This document shows positions 15,737-48,897 of a DNA stretch of 58,307 bases, piece by piece. Source of the DNA: Candidatus Aenigmatarchaeota archaeon (GTDB taxonomy: Archaea; Aenigmatarchaeota; Aenigmatarchaeia; Aenigmatarchaeales; JAHLMS01); NCBI GenBank assembly GCA_018920245.1, contig JAHLMS010000002.1, positions 1-58,307 on the forward strand. The letters are read 5' to 3'. Below the pieces are notes generated by a model that made no database searches, was not told the DNA's origin, and was given only the letters and a program-made list of their open reading frames with translations. The first letter of the stretch is position 1. The number at the start of each line of letters is the position of its first letter. A program made the position numbers and the translations under genes.

Positions 15737-15845
15737 GGGGAGGTAGCTCAGCCTGGGAGAGCGCACGGCTGAAGATCAGCAAGGCAGGCTCTTTGCTGTC
15801 GCAAAGACCGTGATGTCGCGCGTTCAAACCGCGCCCTCCCCACCA
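15737..15845 (+). tRNA. tRNA-Phe(GAA) with a 32-nt anticodon-loop intron and an encoded CCA
   Basis: GGGGAGG-TA-GCTC-AGCCTGGGA-GAGC-G-CACGG-CTGAAG[intron about 15775-15806]A-CCGTG-ATGTC-GCGCG-TTCAAAC-CGCGC-CCTCCCC-A-CCA. The anticodon GAA is at 15771-15773. The exact junction is ambiguous because AAGA is repeated at both ends. The intron contains a CAGCAA/TTGCTG stem. Confidence 0.9.
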
Positions 15846-16470: not shown

Positions 16471-16502
16471 AAGCTTAAATTGGTCTAACAGAAGTATTGA
16501 TT

Positions 16503-17021
16503 ATGCCATTCGTAGCAGAGCTAATCGAGAATAAAGTTATTATCAGCGACCCGTCCGCTCTTACAGAGCTATATGAATCCGTCTGGTACGGCAAAACAAC
16601 AGACCGTGGGCTTGAGCTCGAACTTGTGGAGGCCTGCCTACTGGCCGAGCGGCAACGGATAGAGATTACAAAGAATGGTAAAAAAATAGATTTCAAGGAC
16701 TTCTACAACCTTTGCTGCGCGCTCGACACGCGGTTCGTGCCCCGCTATGCTGTGTACCGTGACCTGCGCGAGCGCGGACTGCCAGTGCGGGTCGGATTCA
16801 AAGGAACGGATTTCAAGGTTTATGAGCGCGGCTCCAAACCCAGCACTGCAGGCGAGGCGAAATGGATAGTGTTCGCTGAGAGCGAGGATTATCCGTGTGA
16901 ATTTGCAAAGCTTGGTAAGGCCATAAAACTAGCACAGAACATCCGTGCGCTTGCGTTGTGGGCAATTGTGGACAACGACCTTGATGTGACGTATTATATA
17001 ATTTCAACACCGAGCGTGTGA
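16503..17021 (+). CDS. endA: tRNA-splicing endonuclease paralog 1 (probable structural/beta subunit)
   Basis: The N-domain is ...WYGKTTDRGLELELVEACLL. The C-domain is YAVYRDLRERGLPVRVGFKGTDFKVYERG...KWIVFAE...KLAQNIRALALWAIVD. Ala sits where the catalytic His of EndA normally lies (GEAKW versus KEHS). Confidence 0.8.
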   Translation: MPFVAELIENKVIISDPSALTELYESVWYGKTTDRGLELELVEACLLAERQRIEITKNGKKIDFKDFYNLCCALDTRFVPRYAVYRDLRERGLPVRVGFKGTDFKVYERGSKPSTAGEAKWIVFAESEDYPCEFAKLGKAIKLAQNIRALALWAIVDNDLDVTYYIISTPSV

Positions 17022-17025
17022 TATT

Positions 17026-17568
17026 ATGGTTATTGAGGCGACACTTTCAGAAGACCGCGTAATAATCTGGGATCGTGAGGCTGGCAATAAAATATTTGAG
17101 ACTGGGTACTATGGCAAGCCGAAGGAGGATCGCCTCGAACTCTCACTAATTGAGGCGATGCATCTGCTTAATATGGGAAAAATAAAGGTTGTTGATGTTG
17201 AAAGAAAGGAAATCGATGCGAAGGCGTTCATGAAGTATTGTCATAAAATTGACCCACGATTCGACTTCCGTTATGCTGTGTACAGCGATTTGCGAAACAG
17301 GCAACTGCCAACGCGAACTGGATTCAAGTTCGGTTGCGACTTCCGTGTTTATGCAAAAGGCGTGAAGCCTCTGAAACGCGGTCCAAAGTCCGCAAAAGAG
17401 CACACCAAATGGATAGTATATGCAGTGCCGGAGAAGTTTGTATGCAGTTTTCAGGAACTCAGCCGTGCAGTAAGGCTTGCGCACAATATCAGGGCTAATA
17501 TGCTTTGGGCAATCGTCGACGAAGAGGGTAACGTGAGCTATTATCAGGTTACATTTTTCAAACCGTGA
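17026..17568 (+). CDS. endA: tRNA-splicing endonuclease paralog 2 (probable catalytic/alpha subunit)
   Basis: YYGKPKEDRLELSLIEAMHLL, then YAVYSDLRNRQLPTRTGFKFGCDFRVYAKG...AKEHTKWIVYAV...RLAHNIRANMLWAIVD. Retains the FRVY Tyr and the KEH His motifs. It begins 4 nt after paralog 1. Confidence 0.85.
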   Translation: MVIEATLSEDRVIIWDREAGNKIFETGYYGKPKEDRLELSLIEAMHLLNMGKIKVVDVERKEIDAKAFMKYCHKIDPRFDFRYAVYSDLRNRQLPTRTGFKFGCDFRVYAKGVKPLKRGPKSAKEHTKWIVYAVPEKFVCSFQELSRAVRLAHNIRANMLWAIVDEEGNVSYYQVTFFKP

Positions 17569-19526: not shown

Positions 19527-21056
19527 CTACTTTATCCTGGCACCCGCCTTGGTGAACGGCAGTTGCTTTTCAAGCAATTTCTCTATGACCTCCTGCAACC
19601 TATCGATGGCCACACGGACTTGTGCAGTGGTGTCGCGGTCTCGCAACGTCACTGTTTCGCTCCTAAGCGTTTCACCATCCACTGTTATGCAATAAGGTAT
19701 CCCTATCTCATCGGCCCTCGCATAACGACGGCCGATGCTATCCGCCTCATCATAGAATATGTTGAGCTGCTTGTTCAGCAGTTCGCATAACTTCTTGGCT
19801 TTCTCATCCATTCCTTCGCGTCGCACAAGCGGAAAGATGGCAACCTGATACGGAGCGAGCGCTGGCGGCAGTGCCAGCCATGTCCGTTTGCCATCGTTAC
19901 GGTAGGCATGCAACATCAGCATCCAGATTGTTCTGTCTATTCCGAACGAGGGCTCGTACATGTTTGGCAGAATGTGCATACCATCCTCGAAGACAGAAAG
20001 CGATTGCTTCGAGAATTTTGCGTGCCTGCTCAGGTCATAGTCAGAACGCCAGGCATTGTTAACACACTCGACCCAACCGAAATCCTCGGTGTAAATCTCG
20101 AAGTCCCAATGAACCTTCGAATAGTGTGCACGCTCCGTCGGCAGTAGCTCCTTGAACCGCAGGCATTTCCTGTCAAAACCCAGCGCTTCGTAGAACTGTT
20201 GGACCTTTGCCAGATAATAACCTATCAATTTGTTGGGAATATAGCCTTCAGCAATGGCGCTGTCAACTGTTATATCAAGCGGCTCCTCCACGGTATCGCG
20301 CAGATTCGCTGGCAAAATGCGTACCTTGAAATCTTTTATGCTCTTATAAGCAGGCCATTCCGTGTTCGCGGGATTGAAGAATATCTGCAGCTCTGCCATC
20401 CAGAACTCTCGCATGCGGATGAACACCTGGCGAGGCGATATCTCGTTGCGGAAGGACTTTCCGATCTGCGCTATTTTCAGCGGCAACTTCGCCCGCTGGC
20501 TCCTGTAGATGAAAGGAAAATCAAGGACAGAGGACTGTGTCGTCTCGGGTTTGAGGTAGCACTTTGTCTCTCCGGTCGGGCCGACATTCACATTAAACAT
20601 AAGGTTGAAAACAAAGACCTCGCCAAGCTCCGCGCCACACTTTGGACATTTGATTTTGTTTTTTCGAATTATATCGGTCAATTCTTCTGTGGTCTTACCC
20701 TCAAGCCTGCCCTCGTATTTTATCGTATCCTCTATGAGGATATCCGCGCGCCATCTATGCTTCTCCTTGCCTTTGCACATCACCTGCTTGTCATTGAAAC
20801 CCTCAGTATGGCCGGATGCCTGCCATACTATCTCGGGAAGTATATCAGAAGTGTCAATTTCATAAGCACCCTCGTCGCGCACCCACCATTTTCGCCACAT
20901 GTCCACAAAGTTATTTTTCACTGCTGTGCCTAGCGGGCCGTAGTTCCAGAAACCAGCAACCGGGTTGTAGAGCTGCGCAGCTGGCCAGAAGAACCCCCTT
21001 CGCTTGGCCAAGGCCTCGACCTCGGCTGCAATTGTCGTTTTCTTCTCTCCAGACAT
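19527..21056 (-). CDS. glyS: glycine--tRNA ligase (archaeal/eukaryotic alpha2 type)
   Basis: KRRGFFWPAAQLY...GFWNYGPLG, FRNEISPR, and the class II motif 3 region GIDR. Confidence 0.93.
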   Translation of the reverse strand: MSGEKKTTIAAEVEALAKRRGFFWPAAQLYNPVAGFWNYGPLGTAVKNNFVDMWRKWWVRDEGAYEIDTSDILPEIVWQASGHTEGFNDKQVMCKGKEKHRWRADILIEDTIKYEGRLEGKTTEELTDIIRKNKIKCPKCGAELGEVFVFNLMFNVNVGPTGETKCYLKPETTQSSVLDFPFIYRSQRAKLPLKIAQIGKSFRNEISPRQVFIRMREFWMAELQIFFNPANTEWPAYKSIKDFKVRILPANLRDTVEEPLDITVDSAIAEGYIPNKLIGYYLAKVQQFYEALGFDRKCLRFKELLPTERAHYSKVHWDFEIYTEDFGWVECVNNAWRSDYDLSRHAKFSKQSLSVFEDGMHILPNMYEPSFGIDRTIWMLMLHAYRNDGKRTWLALPPALAPYQVAIFPLVRREGMDEKAKKLCELLNKQLNIFYDEADSIGRRYARADEIGIPYCITVDGETLRSETVTLRDRDTTAQVRVAIDRLQEVIEKLLEKQLPFTKAGARIK

Positions 21057-21270
21057 GGTATCAGTATTACCGTGATGGCTTAAAAATTCAGCGCAAACAA
21101 GAAAAGTTTTTAAGTCCTAAAAATCAATATTTTATTGTGAGTAAAATGATGGGTGTGCATCTTTGGCAATGATGAACATGAGATTTTGCTAGTGGCCACC
21201 CTGTCACGTATTTCTATTGCCTTTGGTGAAACACTTAAAAGTAGAAATGTCCAATTAGGAGCCGATTGCC

Positions 21271-22371
21271 ATGCCTGAAAAACGTCTCACGCCATTCGAT
21301 GCTGATGAAGATAAAGAGATAGACTACGGAAAGCTGATGAAAGAGTTCGGAACGCAGCCTGTGCCTTCACATATTATCAAGAAGTTGTCCGACATTCGAG
21401 CTTTCCGTCATGGATATGTCTTCAGTCACAGGGATTTTGACAAATTCCTAGCTGCGTATGAGGCCGGAAAAAAGGTCGCTATAATCACCGGATTCAACGC
21501 TTCAGGCAGCATACATCTCGGGCACAAGCTGTCGTTCGATTGTGTTATTGAACTGCAGAAAAAATATAGGATACCAGCCTATGTGCCGATATCCGATGAT
21601 GAGAGCTATGTCTGTGAGAAGGTTAAGGACCAGGCAGAGGGGCTCAAGAATGCACGCCTGATAGTTGCACAACTACTCGCACTCGGATTCGATCCATCGT
21701 TGACGAAGTTCTTCATACATCAGCAGTACACTAAGATCTACAACCTTGCCATCAAGCTTTCACGACGCTATACCATGAGCGCGATAAAAGCTATTTACGG
21801 CTTTACGGACAGTACAAATCCAGGTCTTATGTTTTATCCTGTCATACAGGCAGCTGACATCCTATTGCCGCAAGAGCCTGAATTTGAAGGCAGGATTTTT
21901 ACAGTGACGCCCATAGGCATCGATCAAGACCCTCACATGCGGCTGGCACGCGACATAGCAGACAAATTTGGTTACATCAAACCAACTACATTTCACATCA
22001 AGTATTTGCCCGGCCTGCGCGGCGGTAAGATGTCGAAGTCAAGGCCTGGCAGCGCCCTGTTCTTAAATGAGAAGCCTGAAGTGGCTGCAAAATATGTAAT
22101 GAACACGCTTACGGGCGGGCGCAACACCATCGAGGAACAGAGAAAACTTGGTGGAGAATATGATAAATGTATTGTCGCCAAATACATGGCCGCACATTTC
22201 GACGATGATAAGCAGATGTTGGACCGCAAGCGCAAATGCCTTAGTGGGCAGCTGCTCTGTGGAGAATGTAAAAACGACCTTTCCTGCGCCATAAAAAAGT
22301 TCCTGGTAGAATTCCAAGCGCGTGTAGCAAAGGTGGAGAAACGGCTTGACAAGAATCTCATAAAGAATTAA
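21271..22371 (+). CDS. trpS: tryptophan--tRNA ligase
   Basis: Class I HIGH-like GSIHLGH and the KMSKS motif. The N-terminus TPFDADEDKEIDYGKLMKEFGTQPV is typical of archaeal/eukaryotic TrpRS. Confidence 0.88.
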   Translation: MPEKRLTPFDADEDKEIDYGKLMKEFGTQPVPSHIIKKLSDIRAFRHGYVFSHRDFDKFLAAYEAGKKVAIITGFNASGSIHLGHKLSFDCVIELQKKYRIPAYVPISDDESYVCEKVKDQAEGLKNARLIVAQLLALGFDPSLTKFFIHQQYTKIYNLAIKLSRRYTMSAIKAIYGFTDSTNPGLMFYPVIQAADILLPQEPEFEGRIFTVTPIGIDQDPHMRLARDIADKFGYIKPTTFHIKYLPGLRGGKMSKSRPGSALFLNEKPEVAAKYVMNTLTGGRNTIEEQRKLGGEYDKCIVAKYMAAHFDDDKQMLDRKRKCLSGQLLCGECKNDLSCAIKKFLVEFQARVAKVEKRLDKNLIKN

Positions 22372-22401
22372 AGTTTTAAACCCGCCTGCCAATAATAAGG
22401 C

Positions 22402-23709
22402 ATGCCATATGTTCTTACAAATGAGGGCAAGGAATTCCTTTCGAAAGGTTTGCCGGAGCGACACGTCCTGACATTTCTACGCGACGGAAGACGTACAATG
22501 GCCGAACTAGCAACGCTCCCAGGATCAGCAATAGGAATAGGCTGGGCTCGAAAGGCCGGATGGATAAGGATAATAGATAACCTTTTTGTCGAGCTCACCG
22601 ACGAAGGCAGAATAGCATCTGGTCTCAAGCTGCCGATGGAAAGGGCACTCGAAGATGTGGAACGTAGTGGAGAGACAAGCCCTGAAAACGCGCAGTTGCT
22701 CCTCAGTCGCGGACTTATCAGACAAGTGCCTGGAAAGGCTGGAATATTTGAAAAAATAATACCAAGAATGTCTGAGATATCACTGCCGAAACATACAGAG
22801 TCCGAGTATGCACAGCTCACCCCAGAAATAATCAAAACAGGCCGATGGAAGGAGATGCAACCTAAGAAATATGATGTCAACGCACCTGCGCCACAACTCT
22901 GGCCTGGCAAACGGCACATTGTGCAACAATTCCTAGAAAAAGTGCGTCGCATCTGGATAGAGATGGGTTTCAAGGAGATGACGGGTAACCTTTCCGAAGT
23001 TGCGTTCTGGAACTTCGATGCACTATACCAGCCACAGGACCATCCGGCACGCGACCTTGCTGATACTTTTTATCTCAATCCTCCTGAGAGCGTACAGTTA
23101 CCTGGAGGTAACATTGTTGAGCGTGTATCAGCCACGCATACAAACGGGTGGACCACGGGAAGCACCGGATGGAAATATAAGTGGTCCGCCGATATCGCTG
23201 CAAAGGCCTGCCTGCGCACACATACGACATGTCTCAGCGCACGAACGTTGGCCGGACTTCGAAAGGAGGACCTGCCGGCAAAATATTTCGCAATAGGCAG
23301 ATGCTTCCGAAATGAGACATTGGACTGGAAACATCTCTGTGAGTTCTATCAGGTTGAGGGCATTGTGGTTGATGAGAGCGTGACATTCAGGCATTTGCTT
23401 GGCTACCTGAAGCGATTCTATGCAAAATTGGGATTCCCTAATGCGCGGTTCAGACCAGCCTACTTCCCATACACTGAGATGTCGACTGAAATAGAGGTGT
23501 GGGATCCGTATAAGAAGGTTTGGCTCGAGCTTGGCGGCGCTGGTATATTCAGACCGGAGGTCGTGAAACCCCTCATGAACATAGATATTCCTGTTCTTGC
23601 ATGGGGACCAGGCGTGGAGCGGCTTGTCATGAACGCATATAACATTGCTGATATCCGGCAGCTGTACGGAAATGACCTAGCGCTGCTGAGAGGAGCGAAG
23701 ATGTGGTGA
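22402..23709 (+). CDS. pheS: phenylalanine--tRNA ligase alpha subunit
   Basis: HPARDLADTFY, FRNE, and GAGIFRPEV...AWGPGVERL (class II motifs 2 and 3). Confidence 0.92.
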   Translation: MPYVLTNEGKEFLSKGLPERHVLTFLRDGRRTMAELATLPGSAIGIGWARKAGWIRIIDNLFVELTDEGRIASGLKLPMERALEDVERSGETSPENAQLLLSRGLIRQVPGKAGIFEKIIPRMSEISLPKHTESEYAQLTPEIIKTGRWKEMQPKKYDVNAPAPQLWPGKRHIVQQFLEKVRRIWIEMGFKEMTGNLSEVAFWNFDALYQPQDHPARDLADTFYLNPPESVQLPGGNIVERVSATHTNGWTTGSTGWKYKWSADIAAKACLRTHTTCLSARTLAGLRKEDLPAKYFAIGRCFRNETLDWKHLCEFYQVEGIVVDESVTFRHLLGYLKRFYAKLGFPNARFRPAYFPYTEMSTEIEVWDPYKKVWLELGGAGIFRPEVVKPLMNIDIPVLAWGPGVERLVMNAYNIADIRQLYGNDLALLRGAKMW

Positions 23710-25379
23710 TTATGCCTACTATGACTTTCAACAGAAAAGACTTCTGCAAGCTTGTTGGGAAGGATTTCAGTGTTAAGGAGCTGAGCGAGAAGATTCCGAT
23801 GCTCGGTGTTGCCTGGGAACATGCCGAAGGCGATGAGATAGAGGTAGAGGTTTTCCCGAACAGGCCAGACATGCTCTCCGTCGAGGGCCTTGCACGCGCC
23901 TTCTCTGCATTTGTAAACATTGATGTCGGACTCCCTGAATATGTTGTTGAGGATGGTGGTTACAAAGTCCATGTAGACAAGTCTGTGACTGCAATCAGGC
24001 CATACATCGTATGCGCAGTTGTGAAGGGTGCGAAGCTGGACGATACTGCTATCAAGAGCCTGTTGCAACTCCAGGAGAAGCTACATGCAAGCCATTGCCG
24101 CAGAAGGGCGAAGGCCGCGATGGGTGTCTGCGACCTCGACAAAATAAAATTTCCTGTAAAATACACGACAGGCGCCCCGAACATAAATTTTACCCCGCTG
24201 GGTTGGGACACACCACATCCGCTTTCAGAGATACTTAAAAAACATCCGCGTGGCATCGAATATGGATGGATAATAGAGCGCAATACCGTGTTCCCTATAC
24301 TGGCGGATGCAAAGGACATGATACTGTCCATGCCACCTATAGTAAACAGCAAGGATGCTGCAATAACCGTAAAGACGAAGAACCTGTTCATAGACGTGAC
24401 AGGCACTGACCCGAAGACAGTCAAGGAAGTGCTGAATATCGTTGTCACTTCGTTGGCTGACCGTGGCGGAAAGTTGTATTCTGTCGATATTGATTATCCT
24501 AAGCTCACCGAAACCACACCTGACCTGTCACCAAGAATAGCCAAGCTGGACTTGAATTATGCGAACAAGCTGCTGGGGATAAAATTGGGTATCACAGAAG
24601 CGATAGATCTGCTCAAGCGCATGCGGTTCGATGCGGTTGAATTCCTGGACAGCAAAGAGTCTGTAATCGAGGTCACCGTTCCGGCATATCGCACAGATAT
24701 CATGCATCCAATAGACTTGGTGGAAGACATCGCGATAGCCTACGGTTATGAAAACTTCAAGCCAGAGCTGCCACCACTGTTCACGGTAGGTGAAGAGTCG
24801 TCGGATGAGGAGTTCAATCGAAAATTGATTTCAATTATGACTGGGCTCGGCTTCCAAGAAGCGCTCACATACGTGCTCAGCAACAGTATGAAGCTGTTCA
24901 CAAACATGGGCCTGAAGGAACAGCCGACCGTTCGTACTGTCAACCCACGCACTGTCGAGTTCACGTCAGTCCGCACATGGCTACTGCCGTCGTTGCTCGA
25001 AGCGCTGGCTGCAAATCAGCACAACCCTTTTCCACAGAAACTAGCTGAGATTGGCGAGTGCCTTGTTCTTGATAATTCGACCGACACAGGAACGCGCACA
25101 ATCCGAAAACTTGCCGCGGTCATTTGCTATGACGCTGCGAACCTGACGGAATGCAGATCTGTTGTCAATTCCATTCTGGGCAACCTTGGCCTGGAATATT
25201 CGGTAAGGCCGACTGAGCATCCAAGCTTCATACCGAGTCGTGTCGGTGAAATTCTCATCAACGGCAAGCCCGCAGGTTTCTTCGGAGAGATACATCCTGC
25301 CGTGCTTTCAAACTGGAAACTTGAAAAGGCCGTGATTGCTCTCGAGCTGGACGTTTCGGCGCTTCAGCCTGCCAGGTAG
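23703..25379 (+). CDS. pheT: phenylalanine--tRNA ligase beta subunit
   Basis: The B3_4 and B5 domain patterns are present (EVFPNRPDMLSVEGLARA, YRTDIMHPIDLVEDIAIAYGY). It overlaps pheS by 7 nt. Confidence 0.92.
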   Translation: MVIMPTMTFNRKDFCKLVGKDFSVKELSEKIPMLGVAWEHAEGDEIEVEVFPNRPDMLSVEGLARAFSAFVNIDVGLPEYVVEDGGYKVHVDKSVTAIRPYIVCAVVKGAKLDDTAIKSLLQLQEKLHASHCRRRAKAAMGVCDLDKIKFPVKYTTGAPNINFTPLGWDTPHPLSEILKKHPRGIEYGWIIERNTVFPILADAKDMILSMPPIVNSKDAAITVKTKNLFIDVTGTDPKTVKEVLNIVVTSLADRGGKLYSVDIDYPKLTETTPDLSPRIAKLDLNYANKLLGIKLGITEAIDLLKRMRFDAVEFLDSKESVIEVTVPAYRTDIMHPIDLVEDIAIAYGYENFKPELPPLFTVGEESSDEEFNRKLISIMTGLGFQEALTYVLSNSMKLFTNMGLKEQPTVRTVNPRTVEFTSVRTWLLPSLLEALAANQHNPFPQKLAEIGECLVLDNSTDTGTRTIRKLAAVICYDAANLTECRSVVNSILGNLGLEYSVRPTEHPSFIPSRVGEILINGKPAGFFGEIHPAVLSNWKLEKAVIALELDVSALQPAR

Positions 25380-26134
25380 TCCAACATCCTGTCGAACCAA
25401 TTCTTTCTTTTTGTTGGCTCAGTCCAAGCCTCGCCCGCTATCGATGCTGCCAAGCGCTTGAATTCGCGACTGGCCTTGCTGCGCGGGCTATAATTGACAA
25501 CGGGCATCTTCGCGGCGATGGCCTTTGGCACCGCCTTATCCTCAGGCACGACAGCTATCACAGGAACCTCAAGCATGTCGCGAATCTCAGAAACAGAAAT
25601 TTCATGGCTATGACCTCTTACGCGGTTGACCACAACACCAAGCACCTTCGTGCCTATCTCGTTAGCCATCTTGATTGCTTTCAGCGCGTCTGTGAGAGCA
25701 GGCAAGTCTGGATTCGTGACTATTATCATTTCATCGGAAACTTCCATTATGGCTGTTGCCTCCTTTCCCAGACCTGCGGCACCATCTATCAGTATTATTT
25801 CCGCTGCGCCAAGCAGGTTCATAAGGGCACCTGCAAGCTTATTTATGTTGAGACCCTTGAGCGCGCCAACCGACAGCGAAGCTGGTATGACCTGCATGCC
25901 TGAGCTATGCTTGTATATCGCGCTCCGTATATGCGCATCGCCCTTCAGCGCATCATGCAAGGTTATCGGTGCCAGCGGTATGCCTAGGTGAAGGGAGAGG
26001 TTCGGCGTCGTGACGTTGCCGTCTATGACAATAACAGACTTCCCTTTCTCAGCGAGCGCCGCACCGATGTTAGAAGTGGTCGTAGTCTTTCCCACACCAC
26101 CCTTGGCCGAGAGCACGGCAATTATGCGTGTCAT
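25364..26134 (-). CDS. minD: MinD/ParA-family P-loop ATPase
   Basis: Deviant Walker A SAKGGVGKTTTTSN, plus IIDGAAGL. There is a convergent 16-nt overlap with pheT. Confidence 0.85.
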   Translation of the reverse strand: MTRIIAVLSAKGGVGKTTTTSNIGAALAEKGKSVIVIDGNVTTPNLSLHLGIPLAPITLHDALKGDAHIRSAIYKHSSGMQVIPASLSVGALKGLNINKLAGALMNLLGAAEIILIDGAAGLGKEATAIMEVSDEMIIVTNPDLPALTDALKAIKMANEIGTKVLGVVVNRVRGHSHEISVSEIRDMLEVPVIAVVPEDKAVPKAIAAKMPVVNYSPRSKASREFKRLAASIAGEAWTEPTKRKNWFDRMLDYLAG

Positions 26135-26174
26135 AAAATCGTTAGAATAATGGAAATTTAAGAATAAAAAGGTG

Positions 26175-27113
26175 CTACCAGACCGTTCTGAGCAGCATCA
26201 CATTGTTGTTGGGGTACATATCGGTGTTTTTCCTGCCTGGGTCTATCACCAGCTCAAGTTCAGTGATGTCAGAAAGTACAGTTATCTTGCCTGTTATGGT
26301 AAGTTGCGAGCCAGGCTCGATGACCGGCAAGTCAAAGGTTCCGATAACATTGCTTCTGGCTTTTATTTGTAGTTCAGTCGCATTTGAGTCCAGCAGCCCT
26401 CTGTTCATTACAACCATTTTTATGTCGAGATGTACATTGCGCTTCGTCGATGTTACATTCATGAACGTCAGATCAGGCGCCGGCTGCATCCTGTACAGTT
26501 CTTTCAACGTATCAAGAATATCAGGTGTCACCCTCTGCAGGCAATGTAGTTGAGGGTACATTATATCGTAATAGCGCACAGCGGGATTTGTCGTATTAGG
26601 ATGGTCAAGACCCAGCGCATGTCCGAGCTCATGTGCCGCGACCAACTGAGGACAGCTCGTCGAAAAGCTGGTTTTTGTAACTATTGTTACTTCACAACCT
26701 ACAGAAAGGTTGAACAGACCAGTATCGATAACCTTTGGCATGCTGGTGCCGAGTTCGACTGCCTCTTCACCGACAACGGGCACCTCTTTTGTCCATCTTA
26801 CCGTAATGTCGGCTACCTGTGGGCTGTCGACTTCCTTGAATGCAACAAGCCCGTCTGTCTGGTCTTTCCATATTTTCATCCCTTCCCTGAACGCTTCAAT
26901 ATCTCTGTCAGTGGCATTCTGTGTATACATGTAAATTGTCACGGGCATATGGTTCCATCTGAAGTTATCAAACATGAGTGCGTGTGTTTTATTGAATGTT
27001 ATGTTCTCAATGGTGTAGTTGGTAGGCTCCAATTCAGATGGAAAGGATGCCTGCTCTGCAATGCAACCAGATATCATAACAGCCGCAAGCAATGTTAATG
27101 CTATGCACCTCAT
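26175..27113 (-). CDS. secreted matrixin-like (M10) zinc metalloprotease with a CARDB-like C-terminal domain
   Basis: AAHELGHALGLDHPN followed by a Met-turn (DIMYP). The N-terminus MRCIALTLLAAVMISGC looks like a signal or lipobox. I moved the start to 27113 because the track's upstream extension (to 27203) lies over a tRNA gene. Confidence 0.8.
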   Translation of the reverse strand: MRCIALTLLAAVMISGCIAEQASFPSELEPTNYTIENITFNKTHALMFDNFRWNHMPVTIYMYTQNATDRDIEAFREGMKIWKDQTDGLVAFKEVDSPQVADITVRWTKEVPVVGEEAVELGTSMPKVIDTGLFNLSVGCEVTIVTKTSFSTSCPQLVAAHELGHALGLDHPNTTNPAVRYYDIMYPQLHCLQRVTPDILDTLKELYRMQPAPDLTFMNVTSTKRNVHLDIKMVVMNRGLLDSNATELQIKARSNVIGTFDLPVIEPGSQLTITGKITVLSDITELELVIDPGRKNTDMYPNNNVMLLRTVW

Positions 27114-27127
27114 GCGTTCACCATGAT

Positions 27128-27310
27128 TGGTGCCCCGGAAGGGATTTTCACGCTGCCAGTTTCTGCTTTGAACCCTCGACCTCTTGCTATCTTCATCCAT
27201 CACAGAGTGATGGTCAGTTCTTCTAAGTTGGACTTAGAAGGTTCGCCAATGGAACCCGGAGGTTCGCCGAAGGCATCTCAAGCGCTCTATCCAACCTGAG
27301 CTACCGGGGC
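27128..27310 (-). tRNA. tRNA-Arg(UCU) with three introns (30/31, 37/38, 59/60) and an encoded CCA
   Basis: The minus strand reads GCCCCGG-TA-GCTC-AGGTTGGATA-GAGC-G-CTTG[27242-27278]C-CTTCTA[27189-27234]A-GCAAG-AGGTC-GAGGG-TTCAAA[27145-27166]T-CCCTT-CCGGGGC-A-CCA. The spliced product is a perfect cloverleaf with G18G19A20, U33 and a TTCAAAT T-loop. All three inserts can be drawn as bulge-helix-bulge motifs; details are in the findings. Confidence 0.78.
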
Positions 27311-27332
27311 AAAACAAATTTTGGCCACACAG

Positions 27333-27348
27333 CTTATAAATTTATAAG
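27333..27348. promoter_or_regulatory. palindromic TATA element shared by divergent tRNA-Arg and leuS
   Basis: CTTATAAATTTATAAG is a perfect 16-bp palindrome. Its centre is about 30 nt from the tRNA 5' end (27310) and about 30 nt from the leuS ATG (27370). Confidence 0.45.
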
Positions 27349-27369
27349 AACGGAGGAGAAAGTGTTGAC

Positions 27370-30114
27370 ATGTCCGAATGGAAAAAGCTGGAAAGCAGAT
27401 GGCAGAGCGAATGGGCCAAGGCAAAGCTGTTCGAGGCCGAACCTGACAAACGTAAGAAGTACTATATAGTCTTTGCTTATCCTACTGTCAGCGGCACTTT
27501 GCATGCAGGCCAAATGCGCAGCTATAGCATACCCGACGTCATTGCCAGATATAAAAGAGCGCGAGGCTTCAATGTTTTCTTCCCGCTCGGTTTTCATGCC
27601 ACTGGCATTGATTGCCAACGCATCTTCGAAAAATCTAAGGATGCGGAAGCGATGGCAAGATACGGAATACCGGCTTCCGATGCGAAGAAATTCAAGTCAG
27701 CCGTCGATGTTGCTGAATATCTCCAGAAGCGTATGATAGCCTCATTCAAGCAGCTTGGACTATCGCTGGACTACAGGCCGGCTGTGAGCACCATTCATCC
27801 GCAGTATGGCAAGTTCATCCGATGGCAATTCAGGAAGCTTCGTGAGCTCGGATTATTAACACAAAAGGATTACCGCCTTGCCTGGTGTCCGATAGAGAAT
27901 CATCCTGTGAGCCTCGATCCAGCAGAAGCGGATATTCAAGAATGGAAAGGCGCACAAATTAAGGATTATGTGATAATCAAGTTCAAATGTGGCGATCTCG
28001 TTTTGCCTGCAGCTACAATGAGACCAGAAACAATCTTCGGCGTGACGAATGTGTGGCTCAACCCGAATGCAACATATGTACGCTCAAAGGTCGGAAATGA
28101 GACATGGCTCGTCGCTGAGCCTGCAGTCAAGAAGCTGCAAGACCTTGACAAAAAAGTGCAGGTGCTGGAAAAATTTGACGTCAGAAAAATAATCGGGGAG
28201 TCTGCACGCAACCCGGCGACAGGCAAAGATGTTCCTATCTTGGCTGGAGATTTTGCTGACCCTTCCGAAGCAACAGGCATAGTTATGTCCGTGCCAGCGC
28301 ATGACCCATACGATTTCATCTATCTCAAGACCGTTGCACCAGAGTTGAAACCTATTCAAGTTGTGGAGGTTCCAGGTTATGGTGCTGCTCCGGCCGGCGA
28401 GATAATAGCGAAGAACAAAATAACAGATCCCAAAGACAGCCGTCTGGAAAGTGTGGTCAAAGAACTTTATAAACTCGAATATAATGGCCGCATGCACGCG
28501 AACGCAAAACAATTCAAAGGAATGGCTGTGCCGAAGGCGAAGGTAGCAATAACACAGTGGCTCACGAAGCTGGGGTCGGCTGACATGATTTATGAGCTTT
28601 CTATCAAACCTGTGCATTGTAGATGTGGTGCTGAAATAATAATCAAGAAAGTGCCTGGCCAATGGTTCATCGACTATAGCAATGAGGAGTGGAAAGAAAA
28701 GGCTAAGAAGCATGTGCCAAAGATGAACATCTGGCCCAATGAATACAAAAAGGAGCTGCCGTCCATTATCGACTGGCTTGAGGCCCGGCCGTGCGTGCGG
28801 CGCAGGGGCCTAGGCACAGAGTTCCCATTCGAACCTGGTTGGATAATCGAGGCTATATCGGATAGCACAATTTACATGGCGTTCTATATTGTATCGAAAT
28901 ATTTCAACGAGGGCAAATTGAAGATGGATGATTTGACTGACGAGTTCTTCGACTATGTCTTTCTTGGAAAAGGTAAGGCTAGCAACAAACTGTGGAAAGA
29001 TATTCGCAACGAGTTCCTTTACTGGTACCCGCTCGATATAAATGCAATCGGTAAGGAGCACAAATCCGTGCACTTGCCGTTCTTCATCATGAATCATGTG
29101 GCGATATTTCCTGAGAAGCATTGGCCTAGCGGCATATTTGTGAACTGGCACCTTGTAGCCTATGGCAAGAAGATGTCAAAACACTTAGGAAATGTTATAT
29201 TCTGGCATGATGCCATTGAAAAATATGGTGCTGATGCGATAAGGCTGTACCTGACACACGGTTCTAACCAGTGGCACGATTTCGACTGGCGCAACGAGGA
29301 ATGCGAAGGCTACGGCAGGCAACTGATGAACTTTTACAACATGGTGCAGAGGTTGACCAAGATCAAAACAAAAGCGACTGCTGTAAGACCGATAGACCGC
29401 TGGTTGCGCTCTCGGTTGAACCGCCACATAAAGGATGTGACCACCGCGCTAGATATTGCTGAAATACGCAAGGCAGTTGACATAGCATTTTTCAACATCC
29501 TGTCTGACGTGGGCTGGTATTTGAAGAGAACCGATAATCCACGCACCGACTGGCTCGGTGACTGGCTAAGGTTGCTCGCACCTTTCATACCACATGTTGC
29601 AGAGGACCTATGGCATGCAATCGGTAATAAAGATTTCATAATCAATGCAGGCTGGCCAGCGTACGATGGCAAGGCTATAAATCCAACGATAGAAGCAGCT
29701 GAGAACCTTGTCCGAAAGGTGCAGGGCGACATCGATGAGATAAAGAAGATATCCGGTATTTCAAAACCAGCAAAAATATCTTTGATTGTAAGTGCTCCAT
29801 GGAAATACGATGTCTATAACATGGTAATGGGCGGGAAGCCGTTGCACGAAATAATGGAAGATAAGACATTGAAACCTCTCGGCAAGGCTGTTGTCACATA
29901 TGTGCAGAAACTGGAGAAAAGGAAGCCGCTTGATGAACTGTTCCTTGGTGCAGGCAGCGAGCTCGCGGCCCTGCGAGATGCCAAGGATTTCTTTGAGAAA
30001 GTCTTCAGCTGTCCTGTTGAGATATGGGAAGCGGAGAAGGCTGCGAATATTTCTGAACTTGCTAACAAGGCTTCCGCCGCAGAGCCTTGCAAACCAGGTA
30101 TACTACTTGTCTGA
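27370..30114 (+). CDS. leuS: leucine--tRNA ligase (archaeal type)
   Basis: Class I with a HIGH-like GTLHAGQ and a KMSKHLGN (KMSKS) motif. A CP1 editing domain is present. 914 aa. Confidence 0.93.
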   Translation: MSEWKKLESRWQSEWAKAKLFEAEPDKRKKYYIVFAYPTVSGTLHAGQMRSYSIPDVIARYKRARGFNVFFPLGFHATGIDCQRIFEKSKDAEAMARYGIPASDAKKFKSAVDVAEYLQKRMIASFKQLGLSLDYRPAVSTIHPQYGKFIRWQFRKLRELGLLTQKDYRLAWCPIENHPVSLDPAEADIQEWKGAQIKDYVIIKFKCGDLVLPAATMRPETIFGVTNVWLNPNATYVRSKVGNETWLVAEPAVKKLQDLDKKVQVLEKFDVRKIIGESARNPATGKDVPILAGDFADPSEATGIVMSVPAHDPYDFIYLKTVAPELKPIQVVEVPGYGAAPAGEIIAKNKITDPKDSRLESVVKELYKLEYNGRMHANAKQFKGMAVPKAKVAITQWLTKLGSADMIYELSIKPVHCRCGAEIIIKKVPGQWFIDYSNEEWKEKAKKHVPKMNIWPNEYKKELPSIIDWLEARPCVRRRGLGTEFPFEPGWIIEAISDSTIYMAFYIVSKYFNEGKLKMDDLTDEFFDYVFLGKGKASNKLWKDIRNEFLYWYPLDINAIGKEHKSVHLPFFIMNHVAIFPEKHWPSGIFVNWHLVAYGKKMSKHLGNVIFWHDAIEKYGADAIRLYLTHGSNQWHDFDWRNEECEGYGRQLMNFYNMVQRLTKIKTKATAVRPIDRWLRSRLNRHIKDVTTALDIAEIRKAVDIAFFNILSDVGWYLKRTDNPRTDWLGDWLRLLAPFIPHVAEDLWHAIGNKDFIINAGWPAYDGKAINPTIEAAENLVRKVQGDIDEIKKISGISKPAKISLIVSAPWKYDVYNMVMGGKPLHEIMEDKTLKPLGKAVVTYVQKLEKRKPLDELFLGAGSELAALRDAKDFFEKVFSCPVEIWEAEKAANISELANKASAAEPCKPGILLV

Positions 30115-48802: not shown

Positions 48803-48897
48803 TGGTAGCCCCGGGAGGATTCGAACCTCCGTCTAGAGGTTTCCCTTTTGATAATTGCTCCAGAGCCTCTCATGCTTGGCCACTACACCACGGGGCT
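48803..48897 (-). tRNA. tRNA-Gln(CUG) with a 19-nt canonical intron and an encoded CCA
   Basis: AGCCCCG-TG-GTGT-AGTGGCCAA-GCAT-G-AGAGG-CTCTGG[48841-48859]A-CCTCT-AGAC-GGAGG-TTCGAAT-CCTCC-CGGGGCT-A-CCA. The central BHB helix is CTCT/AGGG. Confidence 0.9.

Follow-up and report, generated by a model that had tools for sequence, protein, structure and literature searches.

On the minus strand of a 58,307-nt contig of Candidatus Aenigmatarchaeota archaeon, a DPANN lineage (GenBank JAHLMS010000002.1, positions 1 to 58,307; hereafter "the window"), the stretch 27310..27128 is very probably a functional tRNA-Arg(UCU) gene with three introns, in which a splicing layer is accompanied by a proposed guide layer. 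Reading the sequence base by base divides the 183-nt precursor into four exons. Exon 1 (27279..27310) carries the acceptor 5′ strand, the D arm with A20, G26 and anticodon-stem positions 27-30, while exon 2 (27235..27241) consists of C31 and anticodon-loop positions 32-37 (CUUCUA; anticodon UCU). Exon 3 (27167..27188) begins with A38 and continues through the anticodon stem 3′ strand, the variable loop AGGTC, the T stem 5′ strand and T-loop positions 54-59. Exon 4 (27128..27144) supplies U60, the 3′ strands of the T and acceptor stems, the discriminator A73 and an encoded CCA (27130-27128).

Joined, the exons give a 78-nt sequence including the encoded CCA, GCCCCGGTAGCTCAGGTTGGATAGAGCGCTTGCCTTCTAAGCAAGAGGTCGAGGGTTCAAATCCCTTCCGGGGCACCA, with a full cloverleaf in which 21/21 stem pairs form. 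The acceptor stem has 7 bp, the D stem 4 bp and the D loop 10 nt with G18, G19 and A20; the anticodon stem CTTGC/GCAAG closes the loop CUUCUAA, and the variable loop AGGTC is followed by the T arm GAGGG-TTCAAAT-CCCTT. A first-pass annotation of this DNA had assembled the same tRNA parts, including A20 and the perfect cloverleaf obtained once three inserts are removed, and they match the sequence exactly. ARAGORN reports the spliced form as tRNA-Arg(tct). This program is very permissive on spliced candidates and was relied on only alongside scoring of the splice-site motifs and alignment; heavier weight is therefore placed on the cloverleaf pairing of six orthologues (see below).

The unspliced gene escapes the standard finders, as that annotation had expected of ordinary gene callers. 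ARAGORN makes no call on it with the intron mode (which the annotation had suggested using) either on or off, and the Rfam tRNA model gives no real match at 27128-27310 at gathering thresholds or at E <= 10. Rfam SNORD matches at the locus lie on the wrong strand and were dismissed as chance. No second tRNA-Arg(UCU) was found within the 58-kb window by ARAGORN or Rfam, and the present gene is the only tRNA seen there that is able to read AGA. AGA (73) and AGG (85) together account for 158/430 Arg codons in 14 window genes (AGA alone 17%), and hence a UCU anticodon is needed; without this gene the metagenome-assembled genome (MAG) would seem short of an essential tRNA. Upstream, a TATA-like box TTTATAA (27334..27340, minus strand) at -30 to -24 relative to tRNA position 1 is a candidate archaeal promoter element. 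The block cttataaatttataagc, which includes this box, is kept upstream of the orthologue in the related genome L001, and similar A/T boxes are present in five further related genomes, L002-L006.

All three introns lie on the minus strand: intron 1 (27242..27278, 37 nt) at Sprinzl position 30/31, intron 2 (27189..27234, 46 nt) at the canonical 37/38 site and intron 3 (27145..27166, 22 nt) at 59/60. The first-pass coordinates, lengths and positions of these inserts are right to the base. Archaeal-type bulge-helix-bulge (BHB) motifs were scored by a script that takes a 4-nt helix strand and a 3-nt bulge cut after base 2, on both strands and in every equivalent register. The hand-drawn motifs of the annotation (4-bp central helices, 3-nt bulges) hold at all three junctions, each with a 4/4 central helix. 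Intron 1 pairs 27284-27281 (CGCT) with 27247-27244 (GGCG), with bulges TG|A and AA|C (the bar marks the cut), an outer helix of 3 bp and an inner helix of 4 bp. In intron 2, 27240-27237 (CTTC) pairs with 27194-27191 (GAAG), with bulges TA|A and AT|A. Its helix GTCCA/TGGAT (5 bp) is intron-internal, which corrects the earlier drawing of GTCC/GGAT as the outer helix. That role belongs to the anticodon stem, which becomes whole only after removal of intron 1. Intron 3 pairs 27172-27169 (TTCA) with 27150-27147 (TGAA), with bulges AA|G and AA|T and the 5-bp T stem as its outer helix. The numbers of equivalent cut registers are 1, 3 and 4 for introns 1, 2 and 3, and no alternative register reaches 4/4. 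A random 4/4 helix with G-U allowed has p ~0.02 per register, giving a joint chance of ~1e-4 with the comparative evidence uncounted.

In the intron 1 motif, the central helix is made with C25-U28, and the outer helix is built from G22-G24 paired with C32-U34. This motif is consequently in competition with the D stem, with the anticodon stem and with the intron 2 motif. The motifs at 30/31 and 37/38 are thus never complete simultaneously, which implies that introns 1 and 2 would have to be removed one after the other. Sequential removal of neighbouring introns has already been described for multi-intron tRNAs (PMC8450103). The intron 3 motif is compatible with the cloverleaf.

Orthologues and intron turnover

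Six related genomes (L001-L006) have the orthologous tRNA-Arg(UCU) gene in the corresponding position, oriented divergently from leuS. The best relative of the window LeuRS is from an uncultured archaeon (77% identity) and the next are at 57-59%, two titled Aenigmatarchaeota among them; an exact-match look-up of the window protein returned no record. Every spliced orthologue form is a tRNA-Arg(tct). In the six spliced orthologues, 100% of the cloverleaf cells pair, with compensatory changes in six pairs that fall in the acceptor, anticodon and T stems. This covariation is matched by 0/500 shuffles, and slid controls collapse. A default ARAGORN run on the six loci called no tRNA, single-intron orthologues included.

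The intron content of the orthologues differs. L001 has introns at 30/31 (15 nt) and 37/38 (36 nt) and none at 59/60, a distribution shared by the metagenomic relatives L086 and L133. In L004 the introns are at 37/38 (51 nt) and 59/60 (98 nt) with none at 30/31, and L119 likewise has introns at 37/38 and 59/60. L002, L005 and L006 carry the 37/38 intron only, and score 52-61 bits with the Rfam tRNA model. A metagenome scan, whose pattern was anchored in the canonical intron and included TAGAAG, returned 76 loci, ~55 of which are tRNA-Arg(UCU). Intron positions in the relatives were set by the search pattern together with BHB scoring; L084, L136 and L135 (whose precursor is identical to that of L084) were not parsed automatically, and L108 is an artefact. 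The window, genome loci and metagenomic contigs together comprise 56 distinct pre-tRNAs: 30 with one intron, 20 with two and 6 with three. The other three-intron genes are L082, L148, L102, L107 and L109, and the combination seen in the window is one of several.

The 30/31 site is used in 12 relatives, with introns of 12-21 nt (37 nt in the window), and its BHB helix covaries (CGCT/GGCG, CGCC/GGCG, CGTC/GACG and CGCT/AGTG). The 59/60 site is used in 9 relatives (12-98 nt), and there TTCA/TGAA covaries with TTCG/CGAA. Additional intron sites among the relatives are 17/17a in the D loop and 8/9. All relatives examined retain the canonical 37/38 intron, whereas those at 30/31, at 59/60 and in the D loop are variably present. 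Such repeated gain and loss at a few fixed sites in about 50 relatives constitutes a clean data set on the spread of BHB introns.

The D-loop intron at 17/17a is 29-31 nt long and begins AAGGATTGA in L094, L099, L116, L120, L123, L148 and L153. Its inner helix is 9-10 bp in 5/7 variants, 6 bp in L123 and 3 bp in L099, and its central helix is TCAG/CTGA or CTGG. By sequence, it fits either one inherited family or one that is mobile between variants.

The identical three-intron precursor is also present in the Logan assembly SRR27730043, which is 99.9% identical to the window over 7.3 kb. The independent origin of this assembly rules out an assembly artefact. As to the surroundings, the gene sits in a cluster of aminoacyl-tRNA synthetase genes (window 19527-30114), in which leuS and pheS/pheT-type genes adjoin it; the neighbours in L157 are a class-I (tRNA-synt_1b) and a class-II (tRNA-synt_2b/HGTP_anticodon) synthetase.

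Splicing endonuclease, the overlapping reading frame and other readings of the locus

Two adjacent plus-strand genes in the window encode splicing endonuclease subunits, both with the Pfam domains tRNA_int_endo_N and tRNA_int_endo. The product of 16497..17021 is a structural (beta-like) subunit: its best PDB match is the EndA-like non-catalytic half of Methanopyrus kandleri 5x89, and it has neither the catalytic His position nor the loop discussed below. The product of 17026..17568, a catalytic (alpha-like) subunit, matches PDB 1a79 at 2.9e-31 with Tyr and His aligned; its best matches are M. jannaschii EndA and the N. equitans alpha subunit, and its sequence is matched at 100% identity by an NCBI entry with the title tRNA-intron lyase [Candidatus Aenigmatarchaeota archaeon]. 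Judged from their sequences, the two genes represent the two-subunit architecture of the kind tied to non-canonical introns (PMC5829648, PMC4033280).

In the alpha subunit (residues 109-157), Tyr109 and His126 are present and Ala replaces the canonical Lys (K156 in M. jannaschii, K133 in N. equitans). The sequence AHNIRANMLW, with Ala at the Lys position, is shared by the window protein and all 12 aligned clade homologues. Between Tyr and His lies the conserved loop KGVKPLKRGPK with the 7-residue insert GVKPLKR, and a lysine of this loop may stand in for the lost catalytic Lys. In broad-specificity (alpha-beta)2 endonucleases, cleavage of relaxed BHB motifs depends on an inserted loop bearing a conserved Lys (compare the L3 loop of PMC5829648), of which this insert is at most a candidate counterpart. 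The long Tyr-His spacing is shared with N. equitans (Tyr86/His102), which, however, keeps Lys133 where the window protein has Ala and the conserved loop. An endonuclease clade that lacks the canonical catalytic lysine merits biochemical study.

Downstream of the tRNA, on the same strand, lies a gene for a Matrixin-family lipoprotein protease (26175..27113; Pfam Peptidase_M10 and CARDB), whose start ATG 27113 (MRCIALTLLAAVMISGC) is 15 nt from the tRNA 3′ end. The six-frame open reading frame extends farther, to GTG 27203, and so overlaps the tRNA; ATG 27113 is its Met31. It is scarcely conceivable that the region instead codes for the 30 N-terminal residues of this protease and that the tRNA-like pieces are coincidental, even though the frame is open from 27203 and the long form is used in Logan gene calls on near-identical contigs (P0001, P0126). 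The N-termini of the homologues P0002 and P0003, which share 55% and 30% identity with it, coincide exactly with Met31 and include a signal peptide and a lipobox (MR..L.A.V..GC), and the NCBI records of Aenigmatarchaeota give a 312-aa protease from 27113, the long form being confined to the Logan calls. The 30-residue extension has no homologue, and the DNA is kept as a tRNA in genomes without a protease at this locus. With homologues and NCBI entries starting at Met31, the tRNA region is left non-coding, and the long N-terminus is, on this comparison, spurious. The first-pass annotation had already called it so; its suggestion that the gene is hidden beneath this extension needs amending, as the public NCBI annotation avoids the long form.

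The protease gene has the same orientation as the tRNA and starts 15 nt beyond its CCA; this leaves no space for a promoter of its own, so that it may be co-transcribed with the tRNA. The sequence GGTGA stands 4 nt before its ATG. When all the fetched loci were searched by tblastn with the protease, none of the relatives had a homologue next to the tRNA. The relatives have no protease at this position, and in L005 a MinD-like gene directly follows the tRNA. This distribution suggests that the protease is a recent insertion.

A second question is whether intron 1 is a single unit. The sequence GGCGAACCT occurs twice, at 27268-27260 inside intron 1 and at 27247-27239 across its 3′ junction (GGCGAA|CCT), and in L001, L086 and L133, the closest relatives, the only intron at 30/31 is just 15 nt long and ends in GGCGAA. 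The 37-nt intron of the window thus looks like an expansion by local duplication that left two alternative 3′ cut sites. Since the 5′ strand CGCT pairs with either GGCG, intron 1 could be two nested introns, removed in two steps of 16 + 21 nt, or could be mis-spliced. We consider this unlikely, as the inner helix is better when all 37 nt are taken as one motif (4 bp vs 2 bp). Both routes lead to the same mature tRNA, so that the nested arrangement would refine the three-intron explanation rather than replace it. The same duplication can be read as decay, and together with the blindness of standard finders to the gene it could be taken to indicate a pseudogene disabled by three insertions, with a working copy elsewhere in the genome. 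This would be very improbable for a sequence in which all 75 exon positions keep a perfect cloverleaf and all three inserts have 4/4 BHB helices. Moreover, the syntenic locus of relatives is interrupted at the same sites by introns whose BHB helices covary, it holds a tRNA-Arg(UCU) in six related genomes, and the gene is unchanged in the 99.9%-identical strain.

Some observations nevertheless count against a functional three-intron gene. A second intact tRNA-Arg(UCU) outside the 58-kb window is possible. The inner helix of intron 3 is only 1 bp, which makes its motif a relaxed one that demands an endonuclease of relaxed specificity. Finally, the Tyr-His-Lys triad is incomplete, the whole alpha-subunit clade being without the canonical catalytic Lys.

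A guide-like element in the canonical intron

Intron 2 contains a second conserved arrangement in addition to its BHB motif. In the window, the guide-like element CTTAGAAG (27220..27227, minus strand) is complementary to the anticodon loop and the first two intron bases (CUUCUA|AG). It is followed after 2 nt by a D′-like box, CTGA (27214..27217, minus strand), and then by the hairpin CCATCAC-TCT-GTGATGG, AU and GAAG (27191..27213, minus strand), which contains a C′-like box AUGAAGA that closes a kink-turn or kink-loop (K-turn, K-loop) with CTGA. Across the relatives, the order is CTTCTA (32-37), a 4-10-nt turn, TAGAAG, 2 nt and an nnGA box (mostly CTGA), then a 5-8-nt loop or hairpin, R-U, GA(A/U)(G/A) and the 3′ splice site. 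A 6-9-nt anticodon complement is present in the canonical intron of essentially all relatives, forming a duplex of 7-9 bp, and the guide-like element is found in 7/7 orthologues identified by synteny. The helix continues into the intron, where base i1 is paired in 51/52 distinct relatives and the pair covaries between A-T, T-A and C-G.

The spacing and pairing around the box are also constrained. Offset +5..+6 after TAGAAG is occupied by GA in 52/53 distinct introns, as against <=3/53 for any other offset, and this feature is absent from the metagenome search pattern. In 13/20 long variants a stem of at least 3 bp abuts the box and is followed by exactly 3 nt ending in U and then GA (1.65 +/- 1.2 in shuffled sequences). 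The 13 stems all differ in sequence (e.g., GGCAAT/ATTGCC, TGGGT/ACCCA, GAATC/GATTC and GGAC/GTCC). Moreover, box base 1 and the fourth base after GA often covary (C-G, U-A, U.G), and CCGA/GAGG and TCGA/GAGA give a second pair. These features are characteristic of a K-turn (tandem G.A, a 3-nt bulge and a canonical stem), or of a K-loop where the intron is short, in the box D′/box C′ arrangement of archaeal C/D small RNAs (sRNAs). The two other intron-containing tRNAs of the window, read by eye, have no K-turn or guide arrangement, and hence the motif is not a general intron feature in the window. No description of it was found in the searched literature, the coverage of which is incomplete.

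The antisense element ends 2 nt before the box, within the 1-2 nt usual for box D/D′ guides, and the fifth nucleotide counted from the box pairs with the wobble base U34. In archaea, C/D sRNAs target position 34 of tRNA-Leu, tRNA-Met and tRNA-Trp, and the tRNA-Trp intron is itself such a guide (PMC7994747). These features raise the possibility, to which we would give somewhat less than an even chance, that the canonical intron is a minimal, single-K-turn box C/D-type cis guide for 2′-O-methylation of U34 before splicing. The arrangement could equally be something other than a methylation guide, namely an L7Ae-bound element for folding, quality control or timing, or an excised and possibly circular intron that acts in trans. 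We regard this as credible though short of probable. Archaeal tRNA introns are known to circularise (PMC7994747), and the predicted minimum free energy fold of the window intron, with the guide hairpin and the CCATCAC/GTGATGG hairpin, is at -21.4 kcal/mol compared with -13.6 for the forced BHB fold. This gap of 7.8 kcal/mol counts in favour of a guide layer too, and it means that some factor must remodel the guide hairpin. Since GAAG is common to the K-turn and the BHB central helix in most sequences, the two folds are mutually exclusive. A plain folding element, however, has no obvious need for the constant spacing between the complement and the nnGA box (52/53), which fits the fifth-nucleotide rule of a guide.

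Several points weigh against the guide function. Each intron has one box pair, where box C/D guides have two (C/D and C′/D′) about 12 nt apart, and no second C/D pair was seen in the exons or the other introns; single-site box C/D ribonucleoproteins are active but not site-specific in vitro (PMC1635284). In the window, the K-turn register is off by one nucleotide: the stem is either 7 bp long next to a bulge of 2 nt, or 6 bp long, in which case one C is left unpaired. The conservation of TAGAAG rests on the 7 synteny-found orthologues, as this motif was part of the metagenome pattern. Furthermore, no L7Ae, Nop5 or fibrillarin gene was seen within the 58-kb window, in which tblastn with approximate queries for these proteins and RtcB gave no usable match, a result that applies to the window alone.

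The closest known system is the intron of pre-tRNA-Trp, a box C/D guide (sR50, for Cm34 and Um39; Clouet-d'Orval 2001; Singh 2004; summarised in PMC7994747). Like intron 2, it lies at 37/38, has K-turn boxes and is antisense to its own anticodon; in both, the predicted target is position 34, and the guide and BHB folds are alternatives. The tRNA-Trp intron, however, is ~100 nt long and has two guides and the complete set of boxes (C, D′, C′ and D), whereas the Arg(UCU) introns measure 29-51 nt and have one putative guide and one K-turn or K-loop each. The Arg(UCU) intron also differs in its host tRNA and in that its C′-like box overlaps the BHB central helix.

Combining the two layers, expression of the gene may be envisaged as follows. 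Transcription from the TATA box ~27 nt upstream would yield the 183-nt precursor, in which the canonical intron would fold onto the anticodon loop through its guide-like element before splicing. The K-turn formed by the CUGA and AUGAAGA boxes might then recruit L7Ae, Nop5 and fibrillarin for 2′-O-methylation of U34, with the methylation fold preceding the splicing fold. The two-subunit endonuclease (alpha and beta) encoded at 16497-17568 would cut the six bulges of the BHBs at 30/31, 37/38 and 59/60. By analogy with established archaeal tRNA splicing, an RtcB-type ligase would join the four exons into the tRNA (75 nt, plus the encoded CCA).

If the guide function is true, intron 2 would, next to that of tRNA-Trp, be the second intron-encoded tRNA methylation guide known and the smallest by a wide margin. 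Such a function would give a selective reason for the retention of the canonical intron while the 30/31, 59/60 and D-loop introns vary, and modification and splicing would be structurally ordered through the shared GAAG. Intron retention would then be tied to anticodon modification in a new lineage, by an RNA much simpler than the tRNA-Trp paradigm.

Known multi-intron tRNAs and other interrupted tRNAs in the window

Genes for tRNAs interrupted by as many as three BHB introns are known from Thermoproteales and also from N. equitans, M. kandleri, Korarchaeum and ARMAN (PMC4033280, PMC8450103), and tRNAscan-SE 2.0 can search iteratively for genes with two or three introns at non-canonical sites (PMC8450103). 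The first-pass annotation had associated multi-intron tRNAs mainly with Thermoproteales-type archaea. The kind of gene is indeed well documented in Thermoproteales, but the host here is a member of the Aenigmatarchaeota (DPANN). As in the window gene, the Thermoproteales-type tRNAs (Sugahara et al. 2007/2008; PMC4033280, PMC8450103) have at most three BHB introns, at 37/38 and at non-canonical sites; they too undergo sequential intron removal, are missed by ordinary finders and occur with two-subunit or loop-bearing endonucleases. Unlike the Thermoproteales, the Aenigmatarchaeota are outside the 2014 list of multi-intron tRNA clades (PMC4033280), and intron gain and loss within a single orthologous gene across ~50 relatives is seen in the set described here, unlike the Thermoproteales cases. 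Among DPANN archaea, N. equitans and ARMAN-1/2 also have non-canonical and multiple introns, with (alpha-beta)2 or epsilon2 endonucleases (PMC3239211, PMC2761253, PMC5829648). They have a broad-specificity endonuclease architecture in common with the window; split or permuted genes were not seen here.

Hence, the multi-intron kind, with up to three introns, is already known, and the example from Aenigmatarchaeota is one not described before: no account of multi-intron tRNAs in this phylum was found in the literature searched, which was covered incompletely. A multi-intron gene alone would not surprise a specialist. What draws attention is the series of intron gains and losses in one orthologous gene, the candidate K-turn guide and the endonuclease clade without the catalytic Lys. 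DPANN genomes have been suspected of hiding further multi-intron tRNAs, and genes like this tRNA-Arg(UCU) probably explain the incomplete tRNA sets reported for them (PMC5829648).

Two other tRNAs of the window are interrupted. The tRNA-Phe(GAA) gene at 15737-15842 (plus strand) has a 32-nt insert that can be removed in five registers (34/35 to 38/39) with the same product. The 34/35 register, which lies inside the anticodon, is alone in reaching 4/4 (CGGC/GTCG), compared with 2/4 for the canonical 37/38 register, and this intron may therefore be non-canonical. At 48803-48897 (minus strand), ARAGORN reports a tRNA with a 4-base anticodon. Removal of a 19-nt canonical intron (CTCT/AGGG, 4/4) leaves an ordinary tRNA-Gln(CUG).

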